From contig JAAXHN010000032.1 of assembly GCA_012270885.1 (NCBI GenBank), forward strand, positions 28,688 through 92,687: a stretch of 64,000 bases of DNA. The letters are read 5' to 3'. Shown in pieces: positions 4,277-22,733 of the stretch; within the stretch, counting starts at the first letter, position 1, and each line of letters starts with the position of its first letter. Made by a program: the position numbers and the translations under genes. The notes beneath the pieces were generated by a model. It searched no databases and had not been told where the DNA came from. It saw only the letters and a program-made list of their open reading frames with translations. This stretch comes from Acidimicrobiia bacterium (GTDB lineage Bacteria; Actinomycetota; Acidimicrobiia; Spongiisociales; ZC4RG35).

Positions 4277-7200
4277 GCGCCAACTCGGACTTCGTCCATT
4301 TACACCTCCACACCGAGTACTCGATGTTGGACGGCGCCTCTCGGGTGCCGGAGATCATGGCGGCGGTGGCGTCCGATCGCCAACCGGCGGTGGCGATGAC
4401 CGACCACGGGGTCCTGTACGGGGCGGTGGAGTTCTACCAGGCCGCTCGGGACGCGGGAGTCAAGCCGATCCTGGGCATGGAGGCCTACGTGAGTCCGGGC
4501 TCGCGCTTCGACCGACCAACCGGGGATCAGAACATCCGCCATCACCTGACGCTCCTGGCCTACAACGACGCCGGATATCAAAACCTGATCAAGATCAGTA
4601 GCCGGGCCTTCCTCGACGGATACTGGTACAAGCCACGGGCCGACCGCGAACTGCTGGCTGACCATGCCGAAGGGATTATTGCCGCTTCGGGGTGCCTCAG
4701 CGGGGAGATAGCTTCCCATCTCGTTCCTGGCCTCGTTACCGAGGAAGGGGGGGCGGGGGGTGTCTTCGATCCGGACACAGCCGCCCGGGCGGCCGGCGAG
4801 TACCAGGACATCTTCGGGAGGGAGAACTTCTTCATCGAGATCATGGACCACGGCCTGGCGCACCAGCGCCTCCTCCTGCCCGAACTTGCAAAGCTCTCTC
4901 AGCGGGTGGGAGCGCCTCTCCTGGCTACCAACGACTCCCACTACACGCGCCCGGATGAGTCTGAGACCCACGATGTGCTCCTCTGCGTCAACACCGGCGC
5001 CAACTTCTCCGACGACAACCGGTTGCGTTTCGACTCCCAGGACTTCTACATCAAGTCGGCCCGCGACATGAGGGAACGCTTTCCCTCAGACTTGTATCCG
5101 GGCGCCTGTGACAACACGTTGTTGGTGGCAGAACGGGCCGACGTAAGCATGAGAACCGGGGAACTGCTGCTACCGGATTTCCCAACCCCTCCCGGCCATA
5201 CCCACACCTCCTATCTGGAAGAACTGGTGCGGGAGGGCGCCCGGAAACGCTTTGGGGGAGAAGTCCCCTCCGAGGTCTCCCAGCGCATCCGGTACGAGTT
5301 GGGAGTGATCGGGGAGATGGGCTTTGAGACCTACTTCCTGATCATCTGGGACCTGATCCGCGAGGCGCGCGACCGTGGCATCCGGACCGGACCGGGCCGG
5401 GGATCGGCGGCGGGGTCGATGGTCTCCTATTGCCTGGAGATCACCCAGATCGATCCCTTGGAGTACGGGCTGATCTTCGAGCGGTTCCTGAATCCCGGCC
5501 GGGCCGCCATGCCCGACATCGACATCGACTTCGACGAGCGTTTCCGGGGCGAGATCATCGACTACGTGCGTTCCCGGTACGGCTCCGACCATGTGGCGCA
5601 GATCGTCACCTTCGCCACCATCAAGGGCAAGCAGGCGATACGCGACGCCGCCCGGGTGTACGGCTACGAGTACCGGGTGGGCGACCAGTTGTCGAAGCTC
5701 ATGCCGTCAGCCATTCTCGGGAAGGAGGCGTCTTTGAACCAGTGCCTGAACCCGCCTCCGTCCGAGAGTGACGGCATAGTCAGGGACTGGTACGCCAACG
5801 CGGCCGGCTTGCGGGAGGCATACGACTTCGATGCGGACGCGCGCAAGGTGATCGACGCCGCCCGCGGGCTGGAGGGCCTGCGCCGCCAGGACTCCATCCA
5901 CGCAGCCGGGGTGGTGATCTCCCCGGTCCCGATGACGGAGTTGGTTCCCATCCAACGGAAGGGTGAGGGAGCGGAAGTGGTCACCCAGTACGAGATGGGG
6001 GCGGTGGAGCAACTGGGACTCCTGAAGATGGACTTTCTGGGACTCCGCAATCTCTCCACCATCGAACGGACGATGGACATGGTGGAGGAAGCCACCGGAG
6101 AGCGTCCCGACATCGACCGGGTTCCCCTGGACGACCCGAAGACGTTCGAACTGCTGCGGGCCGCCCAAACGATCGGGGTCTTCCAACTGGAGGGGGATCC
6201 GATGAGAGTGTTGATCCAGCGGCTCCGCCCGGACAGCTTCGACGACGTGGTGGCGCTGGTGGCCCTGTACCGGCCGGGGCCGATGGGGGCCAACATGCAC
6301 AACCTGTATGCCGACCGGAAGACCGGTCGGGCGGCAGTGGCGCCGCTTCACCCCGCCCTGAAGGAGATCCTGGACCCCACCTACCAGATCCTGGTCTACC
6401 AGGAGCAGGTGATGGAAGTCTCCCGCGCCATGGCCGGTTACAGCATGGAGGAAGCCGACAATCTGCGGAAGGCTATGGGCAAGAAGATCAAGGCGGTGAT
6501 GGACGCCGAGGAGGAGAAGTTCGTGGAGGGCTGTGTCGCCCAGGGGCACGACCGCGCCACGGGTCGGGACCTGTTCGAGCTGATCAGCCACTTCGCGGGC
6601 TACGGCTTCAACAAGTCCCACTCGGCCTGCTATGGACTGGTGGCCTACCAGACCGCCTATCTCAAGGCCAACCACCCGGCGGAATACATGGCGGCCCTCC
6701 TGACCTCCTCGAAGAACAACCGGGACCGCACCTCCCTGTACCTTAAGGAGTGCGGCCGGATGGGGCTGTCCGTGAAGGTGCCCGACGTCAACGAGTCGGG
6801 AATGGACTACGAGGTCAGGTCGGGAAGCATCCGGGTGGGGCTTTCTGCGATCCGCAACCTGGGAGAGTCGGTTGCACGAAAGATCATCGAGGCCCGCCGG
6901 GAGAAGGGGGCCTTTGTGAGTTTCGTGGACTTCTGCGAGAAGGTGTCGGTGGAGGCGCTGCGCCGCAACACCCTGGAGTCGCTGGTCAAAGGGGGAGGGT
7001 TCGACAGCGTCGGCCACACCCGGCGCGGACTCATGGAGGTAATGCCCCTGATCGTCGACTCGGTGGTGGACCGCCGCCGCCAGGAGGAGACCGGCCAGTT
7101 CTCCCTGTTCGGGGGTGGCGGGCTGCCGGATCTCACTTTGCCGGAGATCCCCGTCCACCAATGGGACAAACAGGTACGCCTCTCCTTCGAGAAGGAGATG

Positions 7201-7839: not shown

Positions 7840-8058
7840 ATGGCATGGCAGGTACAGGAGGCAGAAGCAGGGTTCAGTGAAATGTTGGAGGCAATCCGAG
7901 TTTAAGGGCCCCAGATTGTCACTAAACAGGGCGTGGAGGTAGCTGTTCTGGTTGCGATGGACGAGTGGATGGAGCTTCAGCAGCGGGCCAGGCCGGGTAT
8001 CAAAGAGTGGCTACTGGCTCCGGAGGGAAGGACGGAATCGTTGATCGCCCGCGGGTGA
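7840..8058 (+). pseudogene. Phd/YefM-like type II antitoxin interrupted by an in-frame TAA
   Basis: ATG 7840 gives MAWQVQEAEAGFSEMLEAIRV, then TAA at 7903-7905. The same frame continues GPQIVTKQGVEVAVLVAMDEWMELQQRARPGIKEWLLAPEGRTESLIARG to TGA at 8056-8058. The pattern matches antitoxins that pair with PIN toxins. Confidence 0.6.
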
Positions 8059-8089
8059 AACATCTGCATCGCACCCTCCCGGATTCGGA

Positions 8090-8149
8090 TTGATTGGTGA
8101 TGCAATGATCACCGCCACCGGAATGGAGTTGTTGAACCTGTTCATTTGA
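8090..8149 (+). pseudogene. stump of a PIN (VapC) toxin gene, C-terminal about 20 codons only
   Basis: The frame reads LIGDAMITATGMELLNLFI*. It resembles the PIN C-terminus (xADALIAATA ... GLELLNPF) with the internal part deleted. It lies immediately 3' of the broken antitoxin. Confidence 0.4.
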
Positions 8150-8183
8150 GGGAGTGAATGGATCGGACATAGCCGATCTATCT

Positions 8184-8576
8184 CTATGTGGTCACGGGCC
8201 AGTGCTGAAGGTCGAGTTCAGGCATTGGGAAGTCGGTGACATTGGCGGTGGCCAGCGCTGCTCCAACTCCGACGGCCGCCGCCGCGATCAGGCAATCTGC
8301 TTGGTGGAGAGTGACTCCCCGCTCAGCATAGGTGCGCCTCCAACGGCCCGCCCGTTGTCCCTCGGTGGAACCAAGCGGCGCTAGACGCAAACCTCGGACG
8401 AGGCGACGTGCGGCGGACTCCTCCTCGGGCTGGAGACCTCGCCAGATTTCCTCAACCGAGATGGCGCAGACCCATGGCTCGACGCCGGTCCGGCGAAGTC
8501 TTCTTAGACGCTCCGCAGCGGGACGTCCGCGTAGAGCGTCGATCAACACGGTGGAGTCGAGCAGGAGCCTCGACAT
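8184..8576 (-). CDS. vapC: PIN-domain toxin VapC
   Basis: LLLDSTVLIDALRG (N-terminal Asp), SVEEIWRG, and ADCLIAAAAVGVGAALATANVTDF (distal acidic residues). Separated by only 2 nt from the upstream antitoxin stop (8579). Confidence 0.85.
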   Translation of the reverse strand: MSRLLLDSTVLIDALRGRPAAERLRRLRRTGVEPWVCAISVEEIWRGLQPEEESAARRLVRGLRLAPLGSTEGQRAGRWRRTYAERGVTLHQADCLIAAAAVGVGAALATANVTDFPMPELDLQHWPVTT

Positions 8577-8578
8577 GC

Positions 8579-8818
8579 TCAGCCGGACCGCTGGGGATCC
8601 CCCTGTCGCTGGGCGCGTACCCAGGATCCGGGATCCTCATCCCACTCATGGCCCGTATCGGGGATGGTGCCCAGCGAGGCTTCGATGTCATCCCATCGCC
8701 GTTCGTCATCGAGTCCCCGTCGGATCAGAGCTGTGATGAACGCACTACGCCTTCGGGGCCCTGCCCTACGATCCAAGTCTTCAACAAGATCGTCATCCAG
8801 TTGAATGTGTATTCTCAT
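8579..8818 (-). CDS. vapB: ribbon-helix-helix (CopG/VapB-type) antitoxin
   Basis: MRIHIQLDDDLVEDLDRRAGPRRRSAFITALIRRGL is an RHH signature. Start chosen at the Met of MRIHIQL (complement of 8816-8818). The track ORF extends to 8836. Confidence 0.75.
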   Translation of the reverse strand: MRIHIQLDDDLVEDLDRRAGPRRRSAFITALIRRGLDDERRWDDIEASLGTIPDTGHEWDEDPGSWVRAQRQGDPQRSG

Positions 8819-8926
8819 GTGCGTTATTATACACACACGATGGCAGTTGCTGGTTTAGAGAGTGGGGATGTGTCACAGGTAGGGGGGTACCCTCGATCCT
8901 GTGATTAGCCATGAGGTAGTGCCAAC

Positions 8927-11900
8927 ATGCTGAAACTGGAGGACATTGAAGCAGGCGCTTTGGTAGCTGGGCTGGTGCCCGGCAGTGCTGTGACTGTTAA
9001 GGCGGTCACCAGGCACGGTGACGATGACATTGAGGTCTTCTACGCCGATGATGAAGGGAATCTCGGAAGTGGACTCTTGTCCAGGGCAGACGAAGATCGC
9101 CTCAGCCTGGCCGCCGCCGAACGCTCTTGGCCTCTGGACGCCGACGGGGAACTGTTCAAACTCGTATCAGAAGCCCGCCGCATCGAGTCGGCCCATCTCT
9201 TCGATCCCTACGTGGCGATCAACACCGCCGACATCGATCCGCTCCCTCACCAGATCGAGGCGGTCTACCAGCGGATGCTGCCGCTCCAACCTCTCCGGTT
9301 CCTGTTGGCCGACGACCCCGGCGCGGGGAAGACCATCATGTCCGGCCTCTACATCCGAGAGTTGATGATTCGTGGCGACGTGGAGCGGGTGCTGATCATC
9401 GCCCCGGGGTCTCTGGTGGTTCAGTGGCAGGACGAACTCTGGCATCGGTTCGGGCTCGAGTTCGACATACTCTCCCGCGAGATGGTCGAGACAGTACGAA
9501 CCGGCAACCCGTTCACCGAGAAGCCGCGGCTCATTGCCCGCCTCGACCAGGTCTGTCGAAGTGAGGATCTCCTTGCCAAGCTGGATGCTTCCCGGTGGGA
9601 CCTGATCGTGGTCGACGAGGCCCACAAGATGTCGGCCCACTACTTCGGCAACAAGCTGCACAAGACAATGCGGTACCAACTCGGGGAACGCCTGGGCCTG
9701 CTAACTCGCCACTTGCTGTTGCTCACCGCCACGCCTCACAGCGGCAAGCCGGACAGCTTTCACCTGTTCTTGGCGCTCCTGGATGAGGACCGTTTCGGTG
9801 GCCGCCAGCGCAACGGAGGGACTCCCGATGTCTCCGACATTATGCGCCGCTCCGTGAAGGAGGATCTGCTCACCTTCGACGGAAAGCCACTTTTCCCCGA
9901 GAGGCGGGCCTACTCAGCCAAGTACGAACTCTCCTCGCTGGAACAGAACCTGTACGACGAGGTCACCCGCTACGTCCGGGATGGAATGGACAAGGCCAAG
10001 GAGATTGAGCAGCAGGACCGCAGGCGGGGTCTGGTGGTGGGCTTCGCTCTGACCGCCCTGCAACGCCGCTTAGCGTCCTCCCCGGAAGCCATCTATCGCT
10101 CCTTGCGCCGGAGGCGCGAACGACTGGAGAACCGCTTGGTTGAACTGGAGGTCATCGCGGAAGGTAAAGCCGCTCCTGGAGAGACTTCTCGTCTGTCCTT
10201 CGGTAAGGGGTTGTCAGAGAAGGACATCGAGTTCTTCGACTTCGACGAATACGACGATGAAGACCGCGAGCAACTCGAGACGGAGGCTATCGACCAGGCA
10301 ACGGCGGCCGCAACTGTTCCGGAACTACGGAAGGAGATCGCAACTCTCCACCGCCTGGCAGCCCTGGCCGCCGAAGTCCGAAGCTCAGGGACCGACAGGA
10401 AGTGGGATGAGTTGTCATCGATTCTCCAGTCCGAGCACATGACCGCGCCAGACGGGACCAAACGCAAGATCATTGTCTTCACCGAGCACAAGGACACCCT
10501 CGAATACCTGAGGCGTCGCATCGTGAGCTTGCTCGGTGGAGTGGACCGGGTGGTAGTGATCCATGGGTCGGTACGCAGGGAAGATCGTCGACGGCACCAG
10601 GATGCCTTTGTGAACGTGCCGGAGGTGGAGGTGATGGTCGCCACCGACGCCGCCGGTGAAGGTATCAACCTGCAGAGGGCCAACCTGATGGTCAACTATG
10701 ACCTCCCTTGGAACCCCAATCGGATCGAGCAGCGTTTCGGGCGTATCCACCGTATTGGTCAAACCGAAGTCTGTCATCTCTGGAACCTGGTCGCATACCA
10801 GACGCGGGAGGGTGCGGTCTTCCACCGACTTCTGCAGAAGATCGAGGAGCAGCGCAGGGCTCTCGGCCAGCAGGTCTACGACGTTCTGGGAGACTCCCTT
10901 ATCGACCGGTCCCTCCGGGACCTGCTGATCGAAGCCATCCAGTACGGTGACCGTCCCGAGGTGAGAGAACGCCAGACTCGCGTCATCGATCAGGAGATCG
11001 GCCCTCAGATCCAGAAACTTGTAAGTGAACGCAGCTTGGTTATCGGTGATCTTCCCGGATTCGACATCCGGGAGGTCCGTGATGACATGGAGCGAGCCAA
11101 ATTGCGAAAACTCCAGCCCGGATTCATATCGAGGTTCTTCATCGAGGCTCTCAACCGTCTGGGTGGAAGGATCGTGAAGCGAGAGAAGGGTCGGTTCGAG
11201 ATAACCAGGGTTCCCGCCAGGGTGAGAACCCGGGAGCGGGAACTCCAGGTCGGAGGTGAGTTGCAACCGAAGTATGAACGGGTGACCTTCGAAAAGGAGT
11301 TGGTGGACCACGAGTCCCGTCCTCAGGCACAGTTGCTGGCTGTCGGGCATCCGTTGTTGGAAGCTGTCGTCAAGACGGTGATCGAAAGCCACGGCGCTCT
11401 GTTACAGAGAGGGGCGATACTCGTGGATCCTCACGCCACCGACAATCGACTGAGAGGACTCACACAGCTAACTCATCTCATAGAGGACGGTAGGAGCCGC
11501 ACCGTGTCACGCCAACACTGGACGGTCGAGATTCCCGTTGGGGGAGACCCGGAAGAGACCGGGGCTGCCCGTCACCATGATCTAAAGCCCATAACCGATG
11601 AGGAGCGTGACCTGATCTCGGGCATCCTGGAGCAGAGCCAAGTCGATGATCTGCTTTCCGATAAGGCGCGGGTTTTCGCCATTACGAGCCTTTGCCGTCC
11701 TCATCTGAATCGGGTCCACCGAGCCGTGGAGTCGCGAGTGCGGCGGATGCGAACCGCAGTGGAAGAGCGACTGTGGGGTCGCATCCAGTACTGGGATGGC
11801 TACGTCAACAAAGCACACACGCTGCAACTGCAGGGGCGTCGGCCCAAGGGGGGATTCACTGCCGGCCACGCACGGAACCTGGCTGACGAACTACAGGCGA

Positions 11901-12433
11901 GACTGGACAGGCGTTGTCACGAACTGGATCTTGAACTGCAACTAACCAACCGACCTCCCGAGGTGGTTGGAGGAGCGGTAGTGGTTCCAAAGATCCTCCT
12001 GGATCGACTATCCAACTGCGACGACGAGCCACCGAATACCCACCCAAAACAGACCCAAGAGGTGGACGAGCGGGCCGTGAAAGCTGTGATGGCCGCTGAG
12101 CAAAGACTGGGACGCCAACCAAAGGAGATGTCCCATAACAACCCCGGCTACGACATCGAGAGCCGCGATCCACAAACCGGCATGCTCTACTTCATCGAAG
12201 TCAAGGGCCGGATCGAAGGAAGTGACACTGTAACGGTCAGCGGCCGCCAGGTGATCCACTCCCAGAACGTCCCCGACCACTTCATTCTGGCCGTTGTCGA
12301 GGTCCCCACGGACCGCAAGGCCAAACCGACGGTGCGCTACGCCAGCCGACCCTTTGAAGGCATGGAAGTTCCATTTGACAGGTTCGCCATCACCGTGCCG
12401 CTGTCGGAGCTCAACCTGCAGGAACCCTCATGA
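8927..12433 (+). CDS. SNF2-family helicase fused to a C-terminal DUF3883 / PD-(D/E)xK-like nuclease domain (defence-module helicase)
   Basis: Helicase motif I LLADDPGAGKTIMSG, motif II VVDEAHKM, motif III LLLTATPHSG, and C-lobe AAGEGINLQRANLMVNYDLPWNPNRIEQRFGRIHRIGQ. The C-terminal 130 aa read NNPGYDIESRDPQTGMLYFIEVKGRIEGSDTVTVSGRQVIHSQNVPDHFILAVV (D..E-x-K arrangement). Confidence 0.85.
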   Translation: MLKLEDIEAGALVAGLVPGSAVTVKAVTRHGDDDIEVFYADDEGNLGSGLLSRADEDRLSLAAAERSWPLDADGELFKLVSEARRIESAHLFDPYVAINTADIDPLPHQIEAVYQRMLPLQPLRFLLADDPGAGKTIMSGLYIRELMIRGDVERVLIIAPGSLVVQWQDELWHRFGLEFDILSREMVETVRTGNPFTEKPRLIARLDQVCRSEDLLAKLDASRWDLIVVDEAHKMSAHYFGNKLHKTMRYQLGERLGLLTRHLLLLTATPHSGKPDSFHLFLALLDEDRFGGRQRNGGTPDVSDIMRRSVKEDLLTFDGKPLFPERRAYSAKYELSSLEQNLYDEVTRYVRDGMDKAKEIEQQDRRRGLVVGFALTALQRRLASSPEAIYRSLRRRRERLENRLVELEVIAEGKAAPGETSRLSFGKGLSEKDIEFFDFDEYDDEDREQLETEAIDQATAAATVPELRKEIATLHRLAALAAEVRSSGTDRKWDELSSILQSEHMTAPDGTKRKIIVFTEHKDTLEYLRRRIVSLLGGVDRVVVIHGSVRREDRRRHQDAFVNVPEVEVMVATDAAGEGINLQRANLMVNYDLPWNPNRIEQRFGRIHRIGQTEVCHLWNLVAYQTREGAVFHRLLQKIEEQRRALGQQVYDVLGDSLIDRSLRDLLIEAIQYGDRPEVRERQTRVIDQEIGPQIQKLVSERSLVIGDLPGFDIREVRDDMERAKLRKLQPGFISRFFIEALNRLGGRIVKREKGRFEITRVPARVRTRERELQVGGELQPKYERVTFEKELVDHESRPQAQLLAVGHPLLEAVVKTVIESHGALLQRGAILVDPHATDNRLRGLTQLTHLIEDGRSRTVSRQHWTVEIPVGGDPEETGAARHHDLKPITDEERDLISGILEQSQVDDLLSDKARVFAITSLCRPHLNRVHRAVESRVRRMRTAVEERLWGRIQYWDGYVNKAHTLQLQGRRPKGGFTAGHARNLADELQARLDRRCHELDLELQLTNRPPEVVGGAVVVPKILLDRLSNCDDEPPNTHPKQTQEVDERAVKAVMAAEQRLGRQPKEMSHNNPGYDIESRDPQTGMLYFIEVKGRIEGSDTVTVSGRQVIHSQNVPDHFILAVVEVPTDRKAKPTVRYASRPFEGMEVPFDRFAITVPLSELNLQEPS

Positions 12434-12511
12434 GGTCACCAACGAGCCTCCTCAAGTAGCCATGAACCGAGAGGACTCGGTTGAACTGTAGTTCTGTTGG
12501 GGTTCCGAGCC

Positions 12512-12865
12512 TTAACCCCAGAAGATGAAGGTGGGGTCGCGTTCTACCTCTGCGATCAGTTGTTCGATCGAAGGTGTCGCCTCTGCAAGGTCGTACTCGC
12601 GGAACCTCAGGTTGCTGTCACTCCAATACAACGACCATTCTCCGCGCACCTTGGTGTAGCGAAAGCGGCAGATCGGGTCGCGAGTCCACTCGGGTCCCAT
12701 GTCATCACTCCACGGCGGTCGGCACTCCAGAACCGTAATCGTACGGGGAGTAAGGTCGATCTCGAATCGGATCAACCCCTGGGCTCCGGCAGGCAAAGCA
12801 GCGTTCCGTCGGTCTATCCACCGACGCACCCGCATCAGGTCACGATCCGGAATCACACCTCGCAT
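12512..12865 (-). CDS. DUF3024-family protein (function unknown)
   Basis: 117 aa. The pattern ..ECRPPWSDDMGPEWTRDPICRFRYTKVRGEWSLYWSDSNLRFREY....LIAEVERDPTFIFWG matches my memory of the DUF3024 consensus (W-LYW-D-N...Y, terminal FWG). Family assignment is from memory only. Confidence 0.6.
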   Translation of the reverse strand: MRGVIPDRDLMRVRRWIDRRNAALPAGAQGLIRFEIDLTPRTITVLECRPPWSDDMGPEWTRDPICRFRYTKVRGEWSLYWSDSNLRFREYDLAEATPSIEQLIAEVERDPTFIFWG

Positions 12866-12936
12866 AGTAGATTCCCGAGGCGCACGGTCAACCAGAATGC
12901 CTATGCAGACAATCCTGAGCGTGTTTCGGTGATGGG

Positions 12937-14442
12937 TCAGGCGCCGTGGTAAAGGCGGTCGGGGTCAATCAACTCCACGTCGGACCGGCGGTTGGCGCCA
13001 CCGATTAGGGCGGGCGTGAAGCCATCCAAGGAGAAGAGCAGAAGCTTGAGGGTGGGGGAGGGAGAGACTCGGTCTCGGCCGGCCAGCAGTTGGGTGAGGC
13101 GGTCGAGGCGGGTCAGGTCGGAGATGTCGAGGCGGGAGGCCTTGGCTTCTCCCACAGCCTGGAGTGTCAGGTGGCGCCCCGGGCCGCCTTCCGGGGCGGC
13201 GGCGGCGATGTCCAGTTCGAAGGATTGGCGCCGGTTGGGGTCGTTGACCTGAACGCGGTGCGCGGTGCCGACCGGGCCGCCCAGGGTCTCCGGCGCCGCA
13301 TACCGGTTGACCCACTCACGACAGAGAAACTCGAAATGGGGACCCACGATCTGAGATCGGTAGGTGCGGGCCGAGGCGGACCAGACTTCCGAAGCCCTGC
13401 GTTGTTCCAGCATCGCCCGGTGGCGCCGGGTGATCAGATGGTGGAAGCGGACGATGGGGTCGGCAATCCGGTAGACGGGCCGCCGGGCAGTGAGCAGGTC
13501 GTCGTCCCGCACCACGAACCCGGCGGTGGTCATCACTTTGAGGTGATGAACGATGTCACCGGGGGCCCGACCCACCGCCGCGGCGATACGTCCCTGCGAG
13601 ATCGGACCCCGGGAGATGGCTTGCAACAGTGAGTAGTAGGGCGCCTCGGCGGTGATTCGGGGGTCCTCTCTGAGGAGGTACTCGTCCTCTCGGAACAGGG
13701 CGTGGGACGGATTGATCGCCGTGGAGGCAAGCCAGTCGCCCAGGTCGTCGGTGCGAAGGGGTGACCCGGCGGCGATGGTCAGGTCCTTGTATCCGGCGGC
13801 GCCCCCCACGATGGCGTCGACGGCGAATGCCACTTCCGGGTCGTCGATCCCCCAAAAGCCGCGGGCCTGACGGTAGTCGAAAGACGCCAGGGGCATGTCG
13901 AGCGTCGCCCGCCCCCGCATGGGAGAGGCGCCGCTGAGGATGGAGGTCATAACCGACATAGCCGATCCGCACACGATGACGGTAACCGGCGAGGTCCAGT
14001 CGCCACCCACACTCCCGGCGGTGGTCTCATCAATCAGGGCCTGGATGGTGGAGTCCAACTCGGGACTGGTGTGACGCAGGTAGGGATATTCGTCAAGCAC
14101 CAGCACTCCTGGTCCCCTCGGGGCTTGACCCAGCATGTTGACGGCGAAGGTCAAAGCGGCGGTCCAGTCGCCGAAGCGAAAGGGGGGCTCTCCGGGGTGG
14201 TGATGACTCAGAATGGCCGCGAACCTGTCCAGGGCCGTTCGTCGCTCCTCTTGGAGGGCGAGGTGGTATATCCCGCCCACCGCCTCCACCAACCCCCGCA
14301 GCAGGTGGCTCTTACCGAATCGACGCCTTCCATATACGATCCCCAACCTCAGCCGCGGTCCGGGTCCGGTGACGAAACCGGCCAGATCAGCCCATTCCAC
14401 ATCCCGGTTGTACACGTTGTGTGGCTTGTTTGCCGACATCAC
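12937..14442 (-). CDS. STAND/archaeal-ATPase-like P-loop NTPase with winged-helix and DUF234-like (possible PD-(D/E)xK) C-terminal domain
   Basis: Walker A GRRRFGKSHLL and Walker B VLVLDEYPYL. wHTH-like ISQGRIAAAVGRAPGDIVHHLKVMTTAGFVVRDD..RRPVYRIADPIVRFHH. The C-terminus has FELDIAAA ... LQAVGEAKAS (D ... E-x-K). Confidence 0.7.
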   Translation of the reverse strand: MMSANKPHNVYNRDVEWADLAGFVTGPGPRLRLGIVYGRRRFGKSHLLRGLVEAVGGIYHLALQEERRTALDRFAAILSHHHPGEPPFRFGDWTAALTFAVNMLGQAPRGPGVLVLDEYPYLRHTSPELDSTIQALIDETTAGSVGGDWTSPVTVIVCGSAMSVMTSILSGASPMRGRATLDMPLASFDYRQARGFWGIDDPEVAFAVDAIVGGAAGYKDLTIAAGSPLRTDDLGDWLASTAINPSHALFREDEYLLREDPRITAEAPYYSLLQAISRGPISQGRIAAAVGRAPGDIVHHLKVMTTAGFVVRDDDLLTARRPVYRIADPIVRFHHLITRRHRAMLEQRRASEVWSASARTYRSQIVGPHFEFLCREWVNRYAAPETLGGPVGTAHRVQVNDPNRRQSFELDIAAAAPEGGPGRHLTLQAVGEAKASRLDISDLTRLDRLTQLLAGRDRVSPSPTLKLLLFSLDGFTPALIGGANRRSDVELIDPDRLYHGA

Positions 14443-14467
14443 TTCTCCCAGAGCGAGAGGGGCCCCA

Positions 14468-14485
14468 GTATAACTCGATTTATAC
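14468..14485. promoter_or_regulatory. near-perfect palindrome GTATAA-CTCGAT-TTATAC in an AT-rich patch just upstream of the ATPase gene
   Basis: Read directly; 16 of 18 positions are self-complementary. It lies 26 nt upstream of the minus-strand start at 14442, in the 285-bp divergent region shared with the methyltransferase gene. Confidence 0.35.
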
Positions 14486-14735
14486 GAAATGGCGTTATAT
14501 TACCGACACTGCGGGAAGGAACACCCGACCGCCTCGGTTCTCGGGATGGTCCACGCCGCAGTGGGCTATAGCAAACCTTTCCTGTGAGTATTAAGTTTTA
14601 CCTCAGGTTTAGGTAGGGCGGTGCATCGCAGGTGAAGGAGCGCCCGTCGGTCGGTTGCTCCACTTCATGGCCCATAACTCGTCTACTCCTCGCCTCGCGA
14701 TCCCTGTCACAGGGGGTGGGTAGGATTTGGGCGAA

Positions 14736-17517
14736 ATGGAGAGGCAAGGTCATCCGGTGCCCTACAAGCGGAAGCTGATTGAGGTGGCTTTGCCGCTCGA
14801 TGCCATCAGCAAGGCATCGGCTCGGGAGAAGTCGATCCGGCATGGGCATCCTTCGACTTTGCATCTTTGGTGGGCGCGTCGGCCGTTGGCGGCGGCCAGG
14901 GCCGTGCTGTGGGCTTCTTTGGTGGACGACCCGTCGTCCCACCCCGACACATTTCCTACCCAGGAGGAGCAGGCCGAGGAGCGCGAGCGACTGTTCGAGA
15001 TCTTGAAGGAACTAGTCGTGTGGGAGAACTCCAACAACGCTCGGGTCTTGGAGAAGGCCCGGCTCGAGATCGAGAAGTCCTGTGACGGTGAGTTGCCGAA
15101 CATCCTTGATCCGTTCTGCGGGGGGGGGGGCAATTCCCTTGGAGGCGCGGCGGTTCGGTCTTCCGGCTTATGGAGGTGACTTAAATCCGGTAGCGGTGCT
15201 GGTCTCCAAGGGGTTGGTCGAGATTCCGCCTCGGTTTAAGGGATTGCCGCCAGTGAATCCGGATGCCCAGTCTGGCCTGGCTGTGAGCTCCTGGGAGCGT
15301 GCGCAGGGATTGGCGGATGACGTCGGCTATTACGGTCGTTGGATGAGGGAGCGGGCATACGTGAGGATTGGCCACCTGTATCCGAAGGTGAGGCTGCCTG
15401 CTTCCGAGGGGACAGGTGACGCAACGGTGATCGCCTGGTTTTGGGCGCGGACGGTCGAGTCTCCGGATCCCTCGTGGAGTGGTCATGTGCCGCTGGTTCG
15501 TTCCTGGGTGGTTCGCCGGGCGAAGAAGAACAAACCGGCAGTGTGGATATCACCGGAAGTTAATCGGTCCAATCAAACTATTAGCTACCGGATTACGGAG
15601 GGAGACGATCCGCCGGGGAGGGGGACGGTTGACAGGAGGGGCGGGAGATGTGTTGCCACCGGGTCGCCAATCGGGTTTCCCTACATTAGGGAACAGGGTC
15701 GCCGAGGGCTGATGGGCAGGTCGTTGATTGCGGTTGTGGCCGAAGGGAACCGGGGTCGGGTATATGTTTCGCCTTCTGCACAACCAGAGGCACCTCAACC
15801 AACCTGGGAACCAACCTCCCCGCTCCCTAAGCGAACTCTGGGGTTCCGAGTACAGCAATATGGGATGATCGAGTGGGCCGACTTGTTCACTGACCGTCAG
15901 CTTGTGGCTTTGTCTACGTTCTCGGATCTATTGGGTGAGGTGCGGTCGGTGGTGGAAACCGACGCGAAGATGGCGGGTTTGGTGGATGACGGAGTCCGTT
16001 TGCGGGACGGTGGTTCCGGGGTGGTGGCGTATGCGGATGCAGTGGTTACCTATCTGGCGTTCGTGGTTGACAAGTGCGCCGATTATTGGTCCACCATTTG
16101 CAGTTGGCACAACGGGAGAGAGTTGATCCGAAACACTTTCGGGCGGCAAGCGATACCGATGGTCTGGGACTACACAGAAGCCAACCCCTTCTCCACCTCT
16201 TCGGGGAACTGGATGGGACAGGTCACCTGGGTGCGGAAGGCGGTAGCGGCGGCACCCGGGCGAGGTGGTGGGGAGGTGTTGCAGCGGGACGCCGTGGCCC
16301 GGATCCGGGAGGTCGCCTCACCGGTGGTGTGTACCGATCCTCCCTATTACGACAACATCTCCTATGCCGATCTGTCGGACTTCTTCTACGTGTGGCTGCG
16401 TCGCAACGTGGGGGATGTTTGGCCGGAGGAGACCGCCACTTTACTGTCTCCCAAGGTTGAGGAGTTGATCGCCAACCCTTATCGGGCGGGATCGAAGCAG
16501 GCTGCAAAGGAACACTTTGAGGACGGGATGATTGATGTTCTTAGCGAAGTTGCCGCTTCTCAAGACTCGCAGTTTCCAGCCACGATCTTCTATGCCTACA
16601 AGCAGCAGGAGACAAAGGAAGGAGATAGGACATCCACGGGGTGGGAGACATTCCTGCAGGGCTTGGTGGATGCCGGGTTGCAGGTTACCGCTACTTGGCC
16701 GATCAGGACCGAACTCTCCAACCGGCCCGTGGCCAGAGGAACCGCGGCATTGGCCTCTTCCATCGTGATCGCCTGCCGTCCGAAGCGGCCGGATGCTTCG
16801 CTGGCTACCCGGCGGGAGTTCCTTGATGCCCTTCAAGCGGAGATGGCGGATCGGGTTCGGGTAATGCAGAGGGACGCCATTGTGCCGGTGGATATGGCCC
16901 AGTCGGCGATCGGTCCCGGCATGGAAGTGTTCTCCCGGTTTGCCAAGGTGGTTGAAGCCGACGGGAGTGAGACGCGGGTTCGCACGGCTATCGGCTTGAT
17001 TAATGAGACCCTGCGGGAGGTGCTGTCTTCCGAGGACACCGAGCTTGACGCCGATACCCGCTGGGCTTTGACTTGGTACGAACAGCACCGACACGACGCG
17101 GCTCCGTTCGGGGATGCTGACACCTTGTCCAAAGCCAAGAACACCTCGGTAGCGGGAGTCGAGCGGGCTGACATCATCGAAAACGTGGCGGGCAAGGTTC
17201 GGATTCTCACCCGTGACGAACTGGAACCGGAGTGGGATCCGGTGGCGGACCCGCGGCGGACTGACTGGAAACTTGCCCAATACCTCATTCTCTTTCTTGC
17301 GGAGTCTGAGGAGAAGGCCGGCAATCTGCTCCGAAAGGTAGGCGGAGGGCTGGGTGATCGGGCCCGCCGTCTCGCTTGGCTGCTCCACCAGATAGCGGAT
17401 CGCAAAGAGTGGTCGTCCGATGCGGCCGCTTATAACGGTCTTGTCCAGTCCTGGCACGACATCCAAAGCCACGCCCAGGTCGGGCCTCCGGCTGAGCAGA
17501 CTTTCGAGGGGATGTAG
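14736..17517 (+). pseudogene. DUF1156-family DNA methyltransferase (DPPY type), reading frame broken by +1 frameshift in a G11 tract
   Basis: N-terminal ORF (14727/14736-15179): [66 protein letters not shown], then out-of-frame NSLGG..*. ORF 15082-17517 continues in the other frame as [27 protein letters not shown] ... VVCTDPPYYDNISYADLSDFFYVWLRR. Removing one G restores [13 protein letters not shown]. Confidence 0.85.
15120..15130 (+). repeat. homopolymeric G11 tract at the frameshift site (codes the GGG of SAM-binding motif I)
   Basis: Counted directly: G at 15120 plus ten G at 15121-15130, flanked by TGC and CAATTCCC. Ten G would be in frame (TGC GGG GGG GGG GCA ATT CCC). Confidence 0.95.
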
Positions 17518-17520
17518 GCG

Positions 17521-20500
17521 ATGGCGGTTACCAATCACGAGCGGGTTGGCAAGGCTCTGACGCTGGTGCGTGACGCCATCCGTCCTGAAGTGGAGCAGAC
17601 TTGGCGCGGCCAGTTCGGCAACAAGTGGGTGCAGCAGGTGAGCGGAAGGATTCACCATCATGGTGGTCCCACTAGCCCCGATGATCTTGCCTTTCTGCTG
17701 AGGGGAATGGATGCCACCTGGGATCAGTTCTTCCGTCAAACTCAGTCCCGATCGACTCGTAGCTACCTGCATCTCCTTTGGGAGGCTCGCAACGAATGGG
17801 CGCACACAAAGCGTTTCAGTTCCGACGAAACCCTCCGCATCCTCGACCATTGTGAGATGATGCTTTTGGCATTCCAGGCCGGAGAGCCAGCAGAGGAGGT
17901 GCAGGAAATCAAACGCACTCTACTCCGCCAGGTGTATGCCGAAGAGCGGCGGACGGCGGAGCGCCGGGCCGCCGCTGGGGCCACCAAGGGGGCACCTCTT
18001 GCAGGTCTGAAGCCGTGGCGGGAAGTGATAACGCCTCATCCCGATGTGCGAGAGGGCCGTTTCGCCCAGGCCGAGTTCGCGGCCGATCTGCGCCAGGTGG
18101 TGAGAGGCGAAGCAGCGTCGGAGTACGGGGACCCCACCGATTTCTACGCCCGGACCTTCGTTACCGACGGGCTGAGGGATCTGATCCGCAACGCCGCCCG
18201 GCGCCTGTCCGGCCAGGGAGGCGACCCGGTGGTGGAGCTTCAAACCGGGTTCGGAGGCGGAAAGACTCACAGCCTGATTGGTCTCTATCATCTGGCCTCC
18301 GGACGGTCTGCTCTGCCGGGAGTGGGTGAGACGTTGGAGGAGGATTACCTGTCGGTTCCCGAGGAGGTGCGGCGGGCGGTGTTCACCGGACAGTTGACTT
18401 CGCCTTCTTCGCCCGTGGTCACGGTGGGAGACATCGAAATCCGGACCATGTGGGGCTACATCGCCTACCAGTTGGGAGGTGTAGAAGGATTTCGGATGGT
18501 GGCTGACGACGATCGCAACGCCACCAATCCCGGCGACAAGCTGGTGGAGTTGTTCCGCAGATACGGTCCGGTCCTGATCTTGATCGACGAATGGGTGGCC
18601 TACGCTCGTGGTCTGCCCATGGCAAACGGGGAGAGGCTGCTCCCCGCTGGTGATTTCGACACGCAGTTCACCTTCGCCCAGGCTTTGACCGAATCCGTGG
18701 CATCGGTGGACAATGCTCTGCTGGTGGTCTCGGTACCCGAATCAAGCGACCCGAGTACGGCGTCCGGCGATCCTCGGGAGGACAGTCTTGAGATCGGAGG
18801 AGAGAAAGGCCGTATGGCGCTCGACCGCTTGCGCCATGTGCTGGCTCGCAAGGCGTCACAGTGGCAACCGGCATCGTCCGAAGAGTCGTTCGAGATCGTG
18901 CGGCGCCGGCTGTTCGAGCCCCTGGAGTCGTCGATGGCCCGTCACAAGGACGCAGTGGTCAAGGCCTACCACAGGTTCTATCTGGACAACGCCCGAGAGT
19001 TTCCTTCAGAGACGAGGGAGCGAGACTACCTGAGGCGGATGGAAGCCGCCTATCCCATCCATCCTGAGTTCTTCGACCGCCTCTACCAGGACTGGTCGAC
19101 GCTCGAGCGGTTCCAGCGGACCCGTGGGGTACTGCGGTTGATGGCGAGTGTCATCTCTGAGTTGTGGGACCGCGACGATAAGTCTTTGATGATCATGCCG
19201 GGAGTCGTCCCGATGGACTCCGCGAAAGTGGTGACTGAACTAACCCGATATGTGGACGACCGCTGGAAACCGATCATCGACGCCGATGTAGACGGCCCCG
19301 GGTCGCTGCCTCTGCGCTTTGACCGGGATCGGAAGAACCTGGGCAGATACTGGGCCTGCCGCCGAGTGGCCCGCGCCACCTATTTGGGGTCGGCTCCTCT
19401 GCCGGTTGATCGGCGCGGAATCGACCGGACTCGCATCGTGCTGGGATGTGTCCAGCCTGGCGAGCGGCCGGGTGTGTTCGGTGACGCCCTCCGACACCTG
19501 GCGGGCGAGGCCACCTACCTCTACAACCAGCAGATGAGGTACTGGTACGACACCAAGCCGTCGTTGACCAAGATGGCGGCGGACCGGGCGCTCTCTAACT
19601 TCAGCGACGACGATGCGGATATCGAGTTGCGCGGACGGATGCAGAAGATCAGGGCCGGTGAACCGCTCGGCTTTGTCCATGTTTTCCCCGACGGGCCGGG
19701 AGACGTCCCGGATGAGGACGACAGAGTCCGGCTGGTGATCCTTCCCCCAAAGCAATATCACGAGAGAGGAGCTGAGTCTCCGGCGGAAGAGGCGGCCCAA
19801 GCAATCCTGGAGCAGCGTCGAGGTGGGCCTCGTATCAACCGGAACATGCTGGTGTTCCTGGCCGCCGAGAGGGCAAGGGTTCCCGAGTTGCGTCAGGCTG
19901 TTCGCAGTCAGATGGCTTGGCAGTCCATCATCGACGACCAGGGAGAGTTTGTTCTCAACCTAACTCCCGCCGACGTCCGCCAGGCCGAGACTAGGAGGGC
20001 TGAGGCAAAACGCACTGTGGAACTGCGGATTGAGGAGACGTTCAGCCAGGTGCTCTACCCGGTTCAGGCACCGGGTGAATCTGAAATCCGGTGGGCGGCG
20101 GTACGAGCAAGTTCCGTTGGCAACCTGGCCGAGCGGGTGGCCCGCAAACTGGAATCATCGGAACACCTGATCCCGAGTTACCACGGCACACGGGTCCGTC
20201 GAGATCTCGACCGAAAGGATGCCCGGTTGTGGAAAGGACCCGGCGACGGAACCCATGTCGGCATTCAAGACCTGTGGTCCTACTACTGCCGCTACCTCTA
20301 CATGCCGCGCCTTGCCGGTTTCGGCGTTCTCGCTACCGCGATCTCCGGGGGCGTGGGCAGTATGAGTTGGCAGACCGAGACCTTTGCCTATGCCGAGTCC
20401 TACGATGAAGAGTCCGACCGTTTCCTGGGCCTTCAAACAGCGCAGCATGTGGACGTGACGCGGAGTCTTGAGGCAGTGCTGGTCCATCCGGATCGGGCAT

Positions 20501-20844
20501 GGGCCCAGATCCAGGCTGACTCCGATGTCCCCAATGCTGGGGGAACTGACACAGACGGGAATGGCGGTGAAGGGAAGGGCGATGACCCCGACAGCGGAAC
20601 AGATCCCGACAAGCTTCCCCTCACCCGCTTCTACGGTCAGGTCGATTTGGATTCAGTGAGGGCCATTCGCGACCTGGAGAGCATCCTCAAGGAGGTCGTC
20701 TCGCATCTCCGCCGGGACGGCAAAGAGGTGACCATCTCGGTCGAGGTGAACGCAGAGGCCGAGGGATTCGACGCCCATACCATGCGGGTGGTGAGCGAAA
20801 ACGCTGCTCAACTCGGCTTCAAGGCACACGAATTCGAGGAGTAA
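17521..20844 (+). CDS. Swt1-like HEPN domain fused to DUF499 P-loop ATPase (defence-module ATPase)
   Basis: N-terminal HEPN signature LWEARNEWAHTKRF (R-x4-H at 17788-17805). Walker A GFGGGKTHSLIGL and Walker B VLILIDEWVAY. About 1100 aa, typical of DUF499 proteins. Starts 4 nt after the methyltransferase stop. Confidence 0.8.
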   Translation: MAVTNHERVGKALTLVRDAIRPEVEQTWRGQFGNKWVQQVSGRIHHHGGPTSPDDLAFLLRGMDATWDQFFRQTQSRSTRSYLHLLWEARNEWAHTKRFSSDETLRILDHCEMMLLAFQAGEPAEEVQEIKRTLLRQVYAEERRTAERRAAAGATKGAPLAGLKPWREVITPHPDVREGRFAQAEFAADLRQVVRGEAASEYGDPTDFYARTFVTDGLRDLIRNAARRLSGQGGDPVVELQTGFGGGKTHSLIGLYHLASGRSALPGVGETLEEDYLSVPEEVRRAVFTGQLTSPSSPVVTVGDIEIRTMWGYIAYQLGGVEGFRMVADDDRNATNPGDKLVELFRRYGPVLILIDEWVAYARGLPMANGERLLPAGDFDTQFTFAQALTESVASVDNALLVVSVPESSDPSTASGDPREDSLEIGGEKGRMALDRLRHVLARKASQWQPASSEESFEIVRRRLFEPLESSMARHKDAVVKAYHRFYLDNAREFPSETRERDYLRRMEAAYPIHPEFFDRLYQDWSTLERFQRTRGVLRLMASVISELWDRDDKSLMIMPGVVPMDSAKVVTELTRYVDDRWKPIIDADVDGPGSLPLRFDRDRKNLGRYWACRRVARATYLGSAPLPVDRRGIDRTRIVLGCVQPGERPGVFGDALRHLAGEATYLYNQQMRYWYDTKPSLTKMAADRALSNFSDDDADIELRGRMQKIRAGEPLGFVHVFPDGPGDVPDEDDRVRLVILPPKQYHERGAESPAEEAAQAILEQRRGGPRINRNMLVFLAAERARVPELRQAVRSQMAWQSIIDDQGEFVLNLTPADVRQAETRRAEAKRTVELRIEETFSQVLYPVQAPGESEIRWAAVRASSVGNLAERVARKLESSEHLIPSYHGTRVRRDLDRKDARLWKGPGDGTHVGIQDLWSYYCRYLYMPRLAGFGVLATAISGGVGSMSWQTETFAYAESYDEESDRFLGLQTAQHVDVTRSLEAVLVHPDRAWAQIQADSDVPNAGGTDTDGNGGEGKGDDPDSGTDPDKLPLTRFYGQVDLDSVRAIRDLESILKEVVSHLRRDGKEVTISVEVNAEAEGFDAHTMRVVSENAAQLGFKAHEFEE

Positions 20845-20919
20845 CCCTCCGAGAAATAGCGTCTCATCAGGGAGTGTCAACCTCAAGGGTCCCTGGCAAC
20901 CAGCGATGCCGGGTGCCCG

Positions 20920-21906
20920 CTAGTTGGCTTCCCCTCTCCGATCCTGCTGCACGATCACCTTTCGGTGCGGATAGGGTATGTCTATCCCGGCGGCGTCCAG
21001 GGCCTCCTTGATCCGGAGACGCAACTCGCGTTCGGTTCGCCACTGCAGGGAAGGCCTGGTCTTGGCCCGAACCCGTATGAAGATGCCGGATTCGCCCAAC
21101 TCCTGAACGCCTTTGACCTCGGGGGGTTCGGACAACTCGTCCCCGCCCCACTCGGGGTCGTTCCACATGTCGTCGCCGGCTTGGCGGATCACTCTTATCG
21201 CCTCTCGCAGGTCACACTCGTATGAGACCTCTATGTCCACCTGCGCCCGGGCCCACAACTGGGAGTAGTTTCCGACGAACTCGATGTTGCCGTTGGGAAC
21301 GGTCCAGACGACACCCTGGCGGGTGCGGATTGATGTCGACCTCAGGGATATTCTCTCCACGGTCCCGCGCCCTCGCCCGAAATCTATGTCGTCCCCGACG
21401 CTGTAGATGTCCTCGATCATGGTGAAGACACCGCTCAGGAAGTCCCGGACCACGGTTTGAGAGCCAAAGCCGATGGCGATGCCGAGGATGCCGGCGCCCG
21501 CTATGAGCGGACCCAGGTCGATGTTGAGTTGGCCGAGGGCCAGCAGGATCGTAAACGTCCATATCCCGAATAGGGCTATGCTGCGAAGCACCCCGGCAAG
21601 GGTCTCTGCTCTGGCTTTGGCTCGTAGCTTTTCCGCCTCTATCGAGACAGTGGGATCCCGCCCTATTTCCCTGAGGTCCGGACGTGCGAGCCGTGCTGTG
21701 AAACGGTCGATGGCCCGTTTAACGACGTGAGAAGCCACCCATCCGCCCACCAGTATCAGCAGCACGAGCAATCCGGGGCCCACCAGCCAAGTGGCCATGT
21801 CCGCAAGGACCCGGCTGCCGGTCCACTCAAACACCTTTACACATACGATGTTCGTCTGATCACCGCAGGCCGGCACGGTGGTGCTCCCTTGAGCTATGAG
21901 GAACAT
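20920..21906 (-). CDS. small-conductance mechanosensitive channel (MscS family)
   Basis: TM helices followed by GAGILGIAIGFGSQTVVRDFLSGVFTMIEDIYSVGDDIDFGRGRGTVERISLRSTSIRTRQGVVWTVPNG. Confidence 0.85.
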   Translation of the reverse strand: MFLIAQGSTTVPACGDQTNIVCVKVFEWTGSRVLADMATWLVGPGLLVLLILVGGWVASHVVKRAIDRFTARLARPDLREIGRDPTVSIEAEKLRAKARAETLAGVLRSIALFGIWTFTILLALGQLNIDLGPLIAGAGILGIAIGFGSQTVVRDFLSGVFTMIEDIYSVGDDIDFGRGRGTVERISLRSTSIRTRQGVVWTVPNGNIEFVGNYSQLWARAQVDIEVSYECDLREAIRVIRQAGDDMWNDPEWGGDELSEPPEVKGVQELGESGIFIRVRAKTRPSLQWRTERELRLRIKEALDAAGIDIPYPHRKVIVQQDRRGEAN

Positions 21907-22104
21907 GGCATGGCTACCTGCGTTCGACTCGACAAAACGTGGGTCAGAAGTCTACTGACGGCCGTACAGCGGGAGGGTGGGGGCAGACACCAGGCGAAAC
22001 GTCCGACGGACAGACCTTCCTGAGCGGGGCGATGCCGGTGAGTGCTCTTGCCAAGGTGGTCTTTCCCGCACCCCTCTCACCCGCCACACCGCATGCAGTG
22101 CCCG

Positions 22105-22500
22105 TCAAGAGGGCGGCATGTGAAAGCGGCAGAAGGGCCCCGGGGCGTTCGCCAGTCGTTCGTCAAGAGTCGCCATCGGTACTCCAAGCGCTTCTGCCAA
22201 GGCCACATACCAAGCGTCGTATACGCTGAGAGTGTCTCGTAACTGCCAGATTCGTTCCGCAAAGGGAAGGAAGGGATAAAGTTCCACGGGAGTTTGGAGA
22301 AGATCGGCAAAAGCCAAGGTGGCGATTTCGGGTGGCAGCCGTTTGTTCAACTGTGCCCTCCGGAGGGCGTGGGTCGCTTCTGCGATGACTAAGTGAGGAG
22401 CGGCAAACGGCCCCTTGCGAAGCTTTGATCTGGCCCAAACTCCCCGGCGGTCCGAGTCGACTAAGGCGCTGACTAGGACCGAGGCATCAACAACCGTCAC
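22105..22500 (-). CDS. vapC: PIN-domain toxin VapC
   Basis: MTVVDASVLVSALV.., HLVIAEATHAL, SVYDAWYVALAEALGVPMATLDERL. 4-nt overlap with the upstream antitoxin. Confidence 0.85.
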   Translation of the reverse strand: MTVVDASVLVSALVDSDRRGVWARSKLRKGPFAAPHLVIAEATHALRRAQLNKRLPPEIATLAFADLLQTPVELYPFLPFAERIWQLRDTLSVYDAWYVALAEALGVPMATLDERLANAPGPFCRFHMPPS

Positions 22501-22733
22501 CGACGGCCGTCATGAATGTAGGACAGGATCTCCTCAGAAGACAGCTTCGTCTGGCTTACTTGAACACGCCGTTCAACTTGAGCCAGCCAATACTCGATGT
22601 CAGGTTTGTCTGCCAGGACGATCAACTCCCGTCGAAGGTACTCCTGCAGGGAACGACCGCTTCGCGCCGCCCGGGCTGCAAGTTCGTCTCTTGTCCGGTC
22701 AGGAACATTTCGGATGGTGATGGAAGTAGGCAT
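22497..22733 (-). CDS. vapB: FitA/VapB-like antitoxin
   Basis: MPTSITIRNVPDRTRDELAARAARSGRSLQEYLRRELIVLA. Start placed at the Met of MPTSITIRN (complement of 22731-22733). The longer track ORF translates an AT-rich promoter region. Confidence 0.75.
   Translation of the reverse strand: MPTSITIRNVPDRTRDELAARAARSGRSLQEYLRRELIVLADKPDIEYWLAQVERRVQVSQTKLSSEEILSYIHDGRR

Follow-up and report, generated by a model that had tools for sequence, protein, structure and literature searches.

Hma (helicase, methylase, ATPase) systems were defined by Payne et al. [quoted passage not shown] The gene neighbourhood of HEPN-DUF499 protein, methyltransferase (MTase) and helicase was first noted in 2013, and Type-1 BR systems have been counted in 2446 taxa, 1370 of them with a HEPN-fused ATPase and 79% with a fusion of the helicase to a PD-(D/E)xK domain (PMC12839542). 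When the HmaABC proteins of Halomonas meridiana were tested, HmaA by itself was enough to protect E. coli against T4, an effect for which its nuclease (nickase) domain was required (PMC11232893). According to two surveys, 62.7% to 66.5% of Hma loci also contain embedded genes, which are oriented like the system itself in 96.7% of cases. Here we describe an Hma locus in a 64,000-nucleotide stretch of DNA (the window) from an Acidimicrobiia bacterium (GenBank assembly GCA_012270885.1, contig JAAXHN010000032.1, positions 28,688 to 92,687), wherein the MTase gene hmaB is out of frame at a run of 11 guanosine residues (G11). Judging from the pattern seen among related genomes, hmaB is probably a slipped-strand phase-variable gene of the Hma system that currently is in its OFF state.

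The closest precedent for such an arrangement is Pgl (BREX type 2), which is likewise an actinobacterial defence system of the BREX superfamily with a G tract in its methyltransferase gene. According to PMC4365076, citing Sumby & Smith 2003, the G tract of pglX causes phase variation of Pgl in Streptomyces coelicolor, with resistance turned on or off as the tract changes in length, and this tract has been proposed to silence modification and restriction together. Pgl differs from the locus described here in having the PglW kinase, the PglZ phosphatase and PglY but no helicase-nuclease, and switching was measured there whereas we infer it for the window. Phase-variable mod genes of Type III and hsd genes of Type I restriction-modification (RM) systems (PMC5909438, PMC7383803) are also comparable, since the open reading frame (ORF) for an N6-adenine MTase has simple sequence repeats in its 5′ part that produce ON and OFF alleles. 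These phasevarion methylases belong to classical RM systems of host-adapted pathogens, whereas the window carries a member of a BREX-related family from uncultured, sponge-associated Acidimicrobiia. A mechanistic template is provided by MANTIS (Gao_RL; Type-2 BR), whose DUF499 ATPase and DUF1156 MTase are homologous to those of the window. Its reconstitution revealed ATPase-loaded hemimethylation, with modification and restriction both under the direction of the MTase (bioRxiv 10.64898/2026.09.23.753747). MANTIS also depends on DUF3780 (MtsB) and on an HKD/PLD-helicase, and the locus described here has neither.

On the basis of gene content and profile matches, the locus is an Hma, or Type-1 DUF499-centred BR, system of the RM-like anti-phage family, in the common HEPN-fused form (Table 1). 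It shares with described members the helicase-PD-(D/E)xK fusion, the DUF1156 MTase, the HEPN-fused DUF499 protein and the presence of genes embedded among the hma genes. It differs from them in the homopolymer within motif I, in the out-of-frame hmaB and in the opposite orientation of its embedded cassette, which is the rare case. The module itself is a canonical member of a described family, and the new element is the repeat in hmaB.

The hmaA product aligns end to end (aa 1-1159) with the PADLOC HmaA profile (E=0, 1366 bits), and it matches the Pfam families SNF2-rel_dom, Helicase_C and NOV_C (PF13020, formerly DUF3883; aa 1048-1131, E=7e-17). Its helicase motifs are undamaged (motif I GAGKT at aa 132, motif II DEAH at aa 230), and HmaA is predicted to be the restriction effector of the locus. 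HmaC, whose coding region starts 4 nt past the hmaB stop codon, matches its PADLOC profile over aa 163-1107 (955 bits), as well as Pfam HEPN_Swt1 (aa 11-117, approximately nt 17551-17871; E=9e-20) and DUF499 (E=1e-30). The catalytic motifs of HmaC are also undamaged, including RNEWAH of the HEPN domain (Rx4H), Walker A GFGGGKTH and Walker B LILIDEW. Between these genes, hmaB is represented by two ORFs. The 5′ ORF can be started at 14727 or 14736 and matches both Pfam DUF1156 (E=1e-32) and PADLOC HmaB (163 bits), and the overlapping 3′ ORF (15082-17517) matches PADLOC HmaB with 877 bits and has no Pfam match. When the repaired protein is used as a tblastn query, the 3′ part is recovered as aa 128-926 in an uninterrupted frame.

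The PADLOC rule for Hma specifies three genes on one strand with no more than three embedded genes between neighbours, as in the curated Hma survey; in the window, the three hma genes share the plus strand and two embedded genes separate hmaA from hmaB. The curated survey set left out pseudogenes, and thus the frameshifted hmaB of the window would have been filtered there. No second hmaB or other compensating MTase was found in the window, and a promoter and terminator scan of the region from 8 to 21.5 kb yielded nothing usable. An earlier note on this DNA, made from the sequence alone, had given coordinates for the three large genes that agree exactly with ours. Its three domain assignments (SNF2-DUF3883, DUF1156 MTase and HEPN-DUF499) are upheld by the Pfam and PADLOC searches, and its reading of the module as RM-like defence is borne out by the full-length HmaA, HmaB and HmaC profile matches. 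It also proposed an actinobacterial host, in keeping with nearest relatives that are metagenome-assembled genomes (MAGs) of Acidimicrobiia and Ca. Spongiisociaceae, and it recognized that the MTase gene is frameshifted. This frameshift is real and lies in the G11 run, although the note had overlooked the tract inside motif I as its site.

Table 1. Genes and repeats of the Hma locus in the window and repeats or paired hmaB genes in related loci (L numbers). Positions are those of the window or of the respective locus.
Feature	Position	Strand	Repeat	hmaB frame	Description
Window, PIN pair 1	8184-8576 and 8579-8836	-			VapC-like, with unassigned 85-aa upstream ORF
Window, hmaA	8927-12433	+			Swi2/Snf2 helicase with C-terminal PD-(D/E)xK-type NOV_C/DUF3883 nuclease domain; 1168 aa, intact
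Window, embedded gene 1	12512-12865	-			DUF3024 protein; 117 aa; Pfam DUF3024 E=2e-22; PADLOC candidate PDC-S43 E=3e-16
Window, embedded gene 2	12937-14442	-			ATPase_2-type P-loop protein with weak helix-turn-helix (HTH); 501 aa
Window, hmaB 5′ part	14736-15179	+			DUF1156 helical domain and motif I as far as the G tract; 147 aa
Window, hmaB G tract	15120-15130	+	G11	out of frame	Gly-Gly-Gly codons of S-adenosylmethionine (AdoMet)-binding motif I; proposed slipped-strand switch
Window, hmaB 3′ part	15118-17517	+			Shifted frame; MTase core, variable target-recognition domain (TRD) region, DPPYY motif IV, C-terminal HTH-like region
Window, hmaC	17521-20844	+			DUF499 ORC/Cdc6-type AAA+ ATPase with N-terminal Swt1-like HEPN; 1107 aa, intact
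Window, PIN pair 2	22105-22500 and 22497-22790	-			PIN with FitA-like ribbon-helix-helix; kept beside the locus in L082, L088, L089
L001, hmaB			G11	in frame	Motif I, B1 group
L082, hmaB			G12	out of frame	Motif I, B1 group
L081, hmaB			G13	out of frame	Motif I, B1 group
L091, hmaB			G13	out of frame	Motif I, B1 group
L092, hmaB			G14	out of frame	Motif I, B1 group; additional 18-nt deletion
L093 = L094, hmaB			G15	out of frame	Motif I, B1 group
L003, hmaB			G11	out of frame	Motif I, other hmaB
L005, hmaB			G11	out of frame	Motif I, other hmaB
L095, hmaB			G11	in frame	Motif I, other hmaB
L004, hmaB			G14	out of frame	About 10 codons upstream of motif I
L096, hmaB			G12	in frame	About 10 codons upstream of motif I
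L002, hmaB	10355-10382		(GA)14	out of frame	About 10-15 codons upstream of motif I
L083, hmaB	9925-9954		(AG)15	out of frame	About 10-15 codons upstream of motif I
L037 (Dehalococcoidia), hmaB			C15	in frame	5′ part of hmaB
L001, paired hmaB	2866-5610 and 10001-12781				Two hmaB genes
L081, paired hmaB	9603-12349 and 16227-18983				Two hmaB genes
L082, paired hmaB	9586-12355 and 14503-17292				Two hmaB genes
L093, paired hmaB	3001-5472 and 7608-end				Two hmaB genes

The G11 tract is the sole homopolymer of at least 8 nt in the entire window, and it coincides exactly with the hmaB frameshift. A version with ten G residues reads TGC GGG GGG GGG GCA and is in frame, such that the removal of one G produces a continuous HmaB protein of 926 aa that includes both motif I and the motif IV sequence DPPYY. 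With G11, translation leaves the frame and reaches a stop codon at 15177-15179, so that HmaB is cut short to 147 aa, the presumed OFF product. As a result, we attribute the frameshift to a tract that is one G too long. In the shifted frame, 782 uninterrupted codons follow the sequence YGGDLNPV.

A genome scan with the repaired HmaB protein recovered 79 loci from MAGs labelled Acidimicrobiia, Ca. Spongiisociaceae (which belongs to the class Acidimicrobiia), Poribacteria, Latescibacterota, Dehalococcoidia and Caldilineaceae. Going by the MAG names, the source community consists of marine-sponge symbionts. Among orthologous hmaB genes that are 85-89% identical and carry the repeat at the same motif I codons (the B1 group), and among other hmaB genes of related genomes, the tracts are polymorphic in length from G11 to G15, occur at three sites and include both in-frame and out-of-frame alleles. 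Outside these genes, approximately 75 more distant homologues use mixed Gly codons at motif I and have G runs of no more than 6 nt. Mixed Gly codons and the same limit are found in the three syntenic homologues that are closest to the window (77-80% identical) and that have no tract. The tract of the window is therefore young, and it arose by synonymous changes from GGC or GGA to GGG.

The positions of the repeats are far from even. Across 96 hmaB genes and 1.91 Mb of sequence, we counted mononucleotide runs of at least 9 nt and dinucleotide repeats of at least 6 units, and 10 of the 36 repeats fall within the 200-nt 5′ segments of hmaB, which represent 1.0% of the bases (expected 0.36; binomial P=2e-12). 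Of the 120 best protein matches, seven were called as ORFs that start just past motif I. Of four matches that appeared to be N-truncated but start upstream of motif I, one (P0005) was examined and rejected as the result of a start-codon call with no frameshift. Searches of JGI metagenomes gave no match to the exact flanking DNA when a gap of variable length was permitted, and a protein-seeded scan of the same resource returned only four distant loci, none with repeats.

Four of the related loci (L001, L081, L082 and L093) have two hmaB paralogues for one hmaC, with a single hmaA also present in L082, and the window has one hmaB. In these two-hmaB loci, the upstream copy has the G tract and the copy beside hmaC has none. 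Four other tract-bearing hmaB genes (L003, L005, L083 and L095), from Ca. Spongiisociaceae-like MAGs, reside in housekeeping neighbourhoods and lack both hmaA and hmaC for 10 kb around them. These orphans are either phasevarion-like methylases or remnants, and of the hmaB genes it is they that most resemble the phasevarion methylases of pathogens. At most of the distant loci, a tblastn search (1e-10) detected no HmaA-like helicase within 10 kb. The identity profile of hmaB is mosaic, with a variable stretch at approximately aa 300-420.

The out-of-frame genes do not look like genes that died long ago. All 18 hmaB genes of the clade, including every out-of-frame representative, retain an uninterrupted downstream ORF of approximately 780 codons. 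Pairs of out-of-frame hmaB genes exhibit ratios of nonsynonymous to synonymous substitution rates (dN/dS) of 0.10-0.25 at synonymous divergences (dS) of 0.3-1.7, indistinguishable from the 0.18 of intact pairs that lack a tract. Open downstream ORFs and low dN/dS values are unlike what is expected of long-dead pseudogenes. Nevertheless, a series of observations weighs against phase variation and must be considered. In the species represented by the window we have seen only G11, in two assemblies that possibly share reads or samples. In a composition test, 59 of 100 shuffles contained at least as many G runs of 10 nt or longer as were observed, so that such a run is not improbable from composition, and the significance of the tract rests on its position and on its recurrence in homologues. 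Tract-bearing DNA alleles include 11 that are OFF and 4 that are ON, which is no better than the one-third expected if lengths drift at random. The tract is absent from the nearest syntenic relatives and is therefore young in its lineage, and the 18-nt deletion in L092 together with the orphan genes indicates that some copies may be decaying. Finally, HmaA provides defence alone in Halomonas, where overexpression of HmaB gave T4 no escape (PMC11232893). Many of these points would be expected if hmaB is a plain pseudogene, in which a fortuitous G run created by synonymous GGG changes slipped once and killed the gene, leaving a system that is decaying or that operates through HmaA only, with no role in switching. 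The youth of the tract, the excess of OFF alleles, the additional deletion in L092, the orphans without neighbouring hmaA or hmaC, and the self-sufficiency of HmaA in Halomonas all fit this explanation. However, hmaB of the window carries no damage other than the tract, and hmaA and hmaC are intact. The out-of-frame genes of the clade have acquired no secondary stop codons and are under purifying selection as strong as that acting on intact genes, even at the highest synonymous divergence, and three types of repeat arose independently within the same 200-nt segment. We consider it unlikely that hmaB is simply dead.

Perhaps the true tract is G10, and an intact hmaB that is always on has been obscured by a sequencing or assembly error. 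A one-base difference in an 11-nt homopolymer is a classic site of error, and many of the related MAGs appear from their record names to be long-read assemblies. Yet a second assembly with a MEGAHIT-style contig name (L080; ENA ERZ27298222, k141_964113) matches the window at 100% identity along 17,339 bp, with no mismatch and with G11 included, and the gene was called there as a 147-aa product. Similarly, two sources (L093 and L094) agree on G15, and the relatives are off by +1, +2 or -1 nt, dinucleotide repeats included, in contigs that appear from their names to come from short-read as well as long-read assemblers. An error of this kind is most improbable, and even if the length call were wrong the tract would still be real and unusual. 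A different possibility is that HmaB is made despite the frameshift, because RNA polymerase slips, or the ribosome slips by +1, along the G run and some of the products are thereby brought back into frame, in which case the tract would tune HmaB dosage and not switch the protein off. Long homopolymers are slippage sites, and purifying selection on out-of-frame alleles fits this explanation as well as it fits reversible switching. By contrast, corrections that differ in sign and size (+1, +2 and -1), along with the (GA)n repeats found in relatives, argue against one programmed recoding event. We judge this route to be very unlikely as the function of the tract, and it is compatible with switching at the DNA level rather than exclusive of it. 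Phase variation of hmaB by slipped-strand mispairing is thus the reading we favor.

By analogy with BREX and MANTIS, the locus probably operates as follows. HmaC would load HmaB onto short asymmetric sites, where HmaB, as an MTase of the N6-adenine type (DPPY), would mark self DNA and also supply the sequence recognition used for restriction. HmaA would then translocate and cut DNA that is unmarked, and the HEPN domain might serve as a back-up RNase effector. Slipped-strand mispairing would alter the length of the tract, and in this way hmaB, and with it the whole system, would be turned ON or OFF stochastically. A frameshifted hmaB is expected to silence modification and restriction together. 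The OFF state would be safe for an unmethylated chromosome in a cell with intact HmaA if the MTase is also needed to target restriction, and for Type-1 systems we assume this dependence on HmaB by analogy. Where relatives have two hmaB genes, the effect of the switch may instead be to gain or lose a second target specificity and not simply to shut down defence. The earlier note had called the mechanism essentially undescribed, but this no longer holds given that the nuclease domain of HmaA is known to be needed for defence against T4 and that the sister Type-2 system has been reconstituted.

More tentatively, we speculate that in sponge-associated Acidimicrobiia, and possibly in other sponge symbionts, the 5′ hmaB repeats constitute a contingency switch that is maintained by selection. 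Under this broader proposal, which is possible but less than even in our estimation, loci with two paralogues would add or remove a second specificity, and the orphan genes would act as phasevarion-like epigenetic regulators of an uncultured symbiont.

The comparison with other defence systems also eliminates two identities for the locus. The earlier note tentatively took these genes for the core of MADS, but MADS (Maestri et al.; bioRxiv 10.1101/2023.03.30.534895) is an eight-gene mad1-8 operon in which MAD6-8 are mandatory and whose target is the bipartite sequence TCAGNNNNTCC. With three core genes, the locus is ruled out as MADS by gene content, a distinction drawn from the description of MADS and not from alignment of Mad proteins. 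The literature likewise lists MADS apart from the DUF499-centred systems (bioRxiv 10.64898/2026.09.23.753747), and within PADLOC, HmaB and HmaC match only the Hma, DUF1156_MTase, MTase_II and DUF499 models. The note had also invoked the NCBI label 'anti-phage-associated', but the proteins of the window score far below the cut-offs of the corresponding NCBIfam equivalogs (DUF1156_antiphage, 97.5 versus 1000 bits; DUF499_antiphage, 151.8 versus 1200 bits). The PLD-helicase model NF042964 is matched by the helicase part only (180 versus 1100 bits), and HmaA has no PLD match in Pfam. No ORF between 8.1 and 21.9 kb matches DUF3780, and there is no free space for such a gene. The NCBI models belong, together with DUF3780 and a PLD-helicase, to the gene set of MANTIS/Gao_RL (Type-2 BR). 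Given these equivalog scores and the lack of both DUF3780 and PLD, this identity is ruled out as well.

Three of the four features that the earlier note regarded as unusual are ordinary for the family. DUF3780 is indeed absent, but this is normal because the locus is Type-1 and Type-1 systems have none. The helicase gene is indeed split from the MTase-ATPase pair, but embedded genes are common in Hma loci and only their opposite orientation is uncommon. Nor is a high-GC actinobacterial host remarkable for a system known from 26 phyla.

The two opposite-strand genes that the note had placed between helicase and MTase are real, and by their profile matches they are a two-gene cassette encoding a DUF3024 protein and an ATPase_2-type protein. 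For the latter, the Pfam match to ATPase_2 (E=1e-6) is below the gathering score, the HTH_20 match is weak, and the PADLOC match to PDC-S27 (E=1e-15) covers the ATPase part only. A PDB sequence search gave no match for either embedded protein, and both match their PADLOC candidates weakly. The pair recurs beside hmaC in the related locus L001 (OZ242000.1), where the ATPase copy is 78% identical, and the DUF3024 gene is also present in L082, L088 and L090. Embedded cassettes on the minus strand are frequent in the Acidimicrobiia clade, for example HipA/GmrSD (L081), a Lactamase_B pair (L082, L093) and GmrSD (L089, L090).

In related genomes, the site occupied by the locus is a defence hot spot of variable content, which includes TIR, Fic, AbiEii, GmrSD and HipA genes. 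Its borders are marked by dnaE upstream (in the window and L082) and by a PIN/FitA pair and thyX downstream (in L082 and L088-L090). The GC content of the Hma region (8000-22000) is approximately 0.60-0.61, compared to 0.63-0.68 across much of the window, which fits horizontal acquisition. PIN-type toxin-antitoxin pairs are located on both sides of the Hma locus (n=2). The ThyX homologue at 23046-24683 on the minus strand is 545 aa long and has two Thy1 matches, giving it the appearance of a tandem-domain protein, and homologues in L088-L090 belong to the same length class (537-570 aa).

Other simple repeats were encountered in the scanned loci. A C12 run (L077, 6452-6463) lies at the 5′ end of a DUF499/hmaC homologue, a C11 run (L043, 9974-9984) lies directly upstream of an hmaB start codon beside a TATACT box, and a C10 run (L002, 20911-20920) is located where a weak DUF499-like match breaks. 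In Dehalococcoidia MAGs, C11(CA)6 (L021, 17844-17865) and C27 (L063, 19918-19944) directly precede large ORFs with signal-peptide-like N-termini, which may encode phase-variable surface proteins. Two Poribacteria chromosomes carry at least three separate hmaB loci each (OY764061.1 with L015, L019 and L039; OZ240244.1 with L026, L032 and L044).

The paper on BR systems (PMC12839542) was searched for repeats and phase variation and mentions neither, a search that did not extend to the Hma papers. In the searchable literature we likewise encountered no account of Hma/BR systems with repeats or phase variation, nor any of sponge symbionts with phase-variable methyltransferases, which is absence of evidence only. 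So far, the slipped-strand mechanism has been known from pathogens, in RM methylases of Type I and Type III, and from pglX of Streptomyces. If our interpretation is correct, slipped-strand phase variation extends to the DUF499-centred BREX-related family and to uncultured symbionts of marine sponges, organisms in which defence genes are abundant. Furthermore, if turning the MTase OFF does no harm to a cell whose helicase-nuclease and HEPN-ATPase remain intact, then restriction by Type-1 systems must depend on HmaB, as it does in BREX and MANTIS. Public pairs of ON and OFF genomes (for example, L001 versus L081 or L082) could yield the recognition motif of the system from existing long-read kinetics data.

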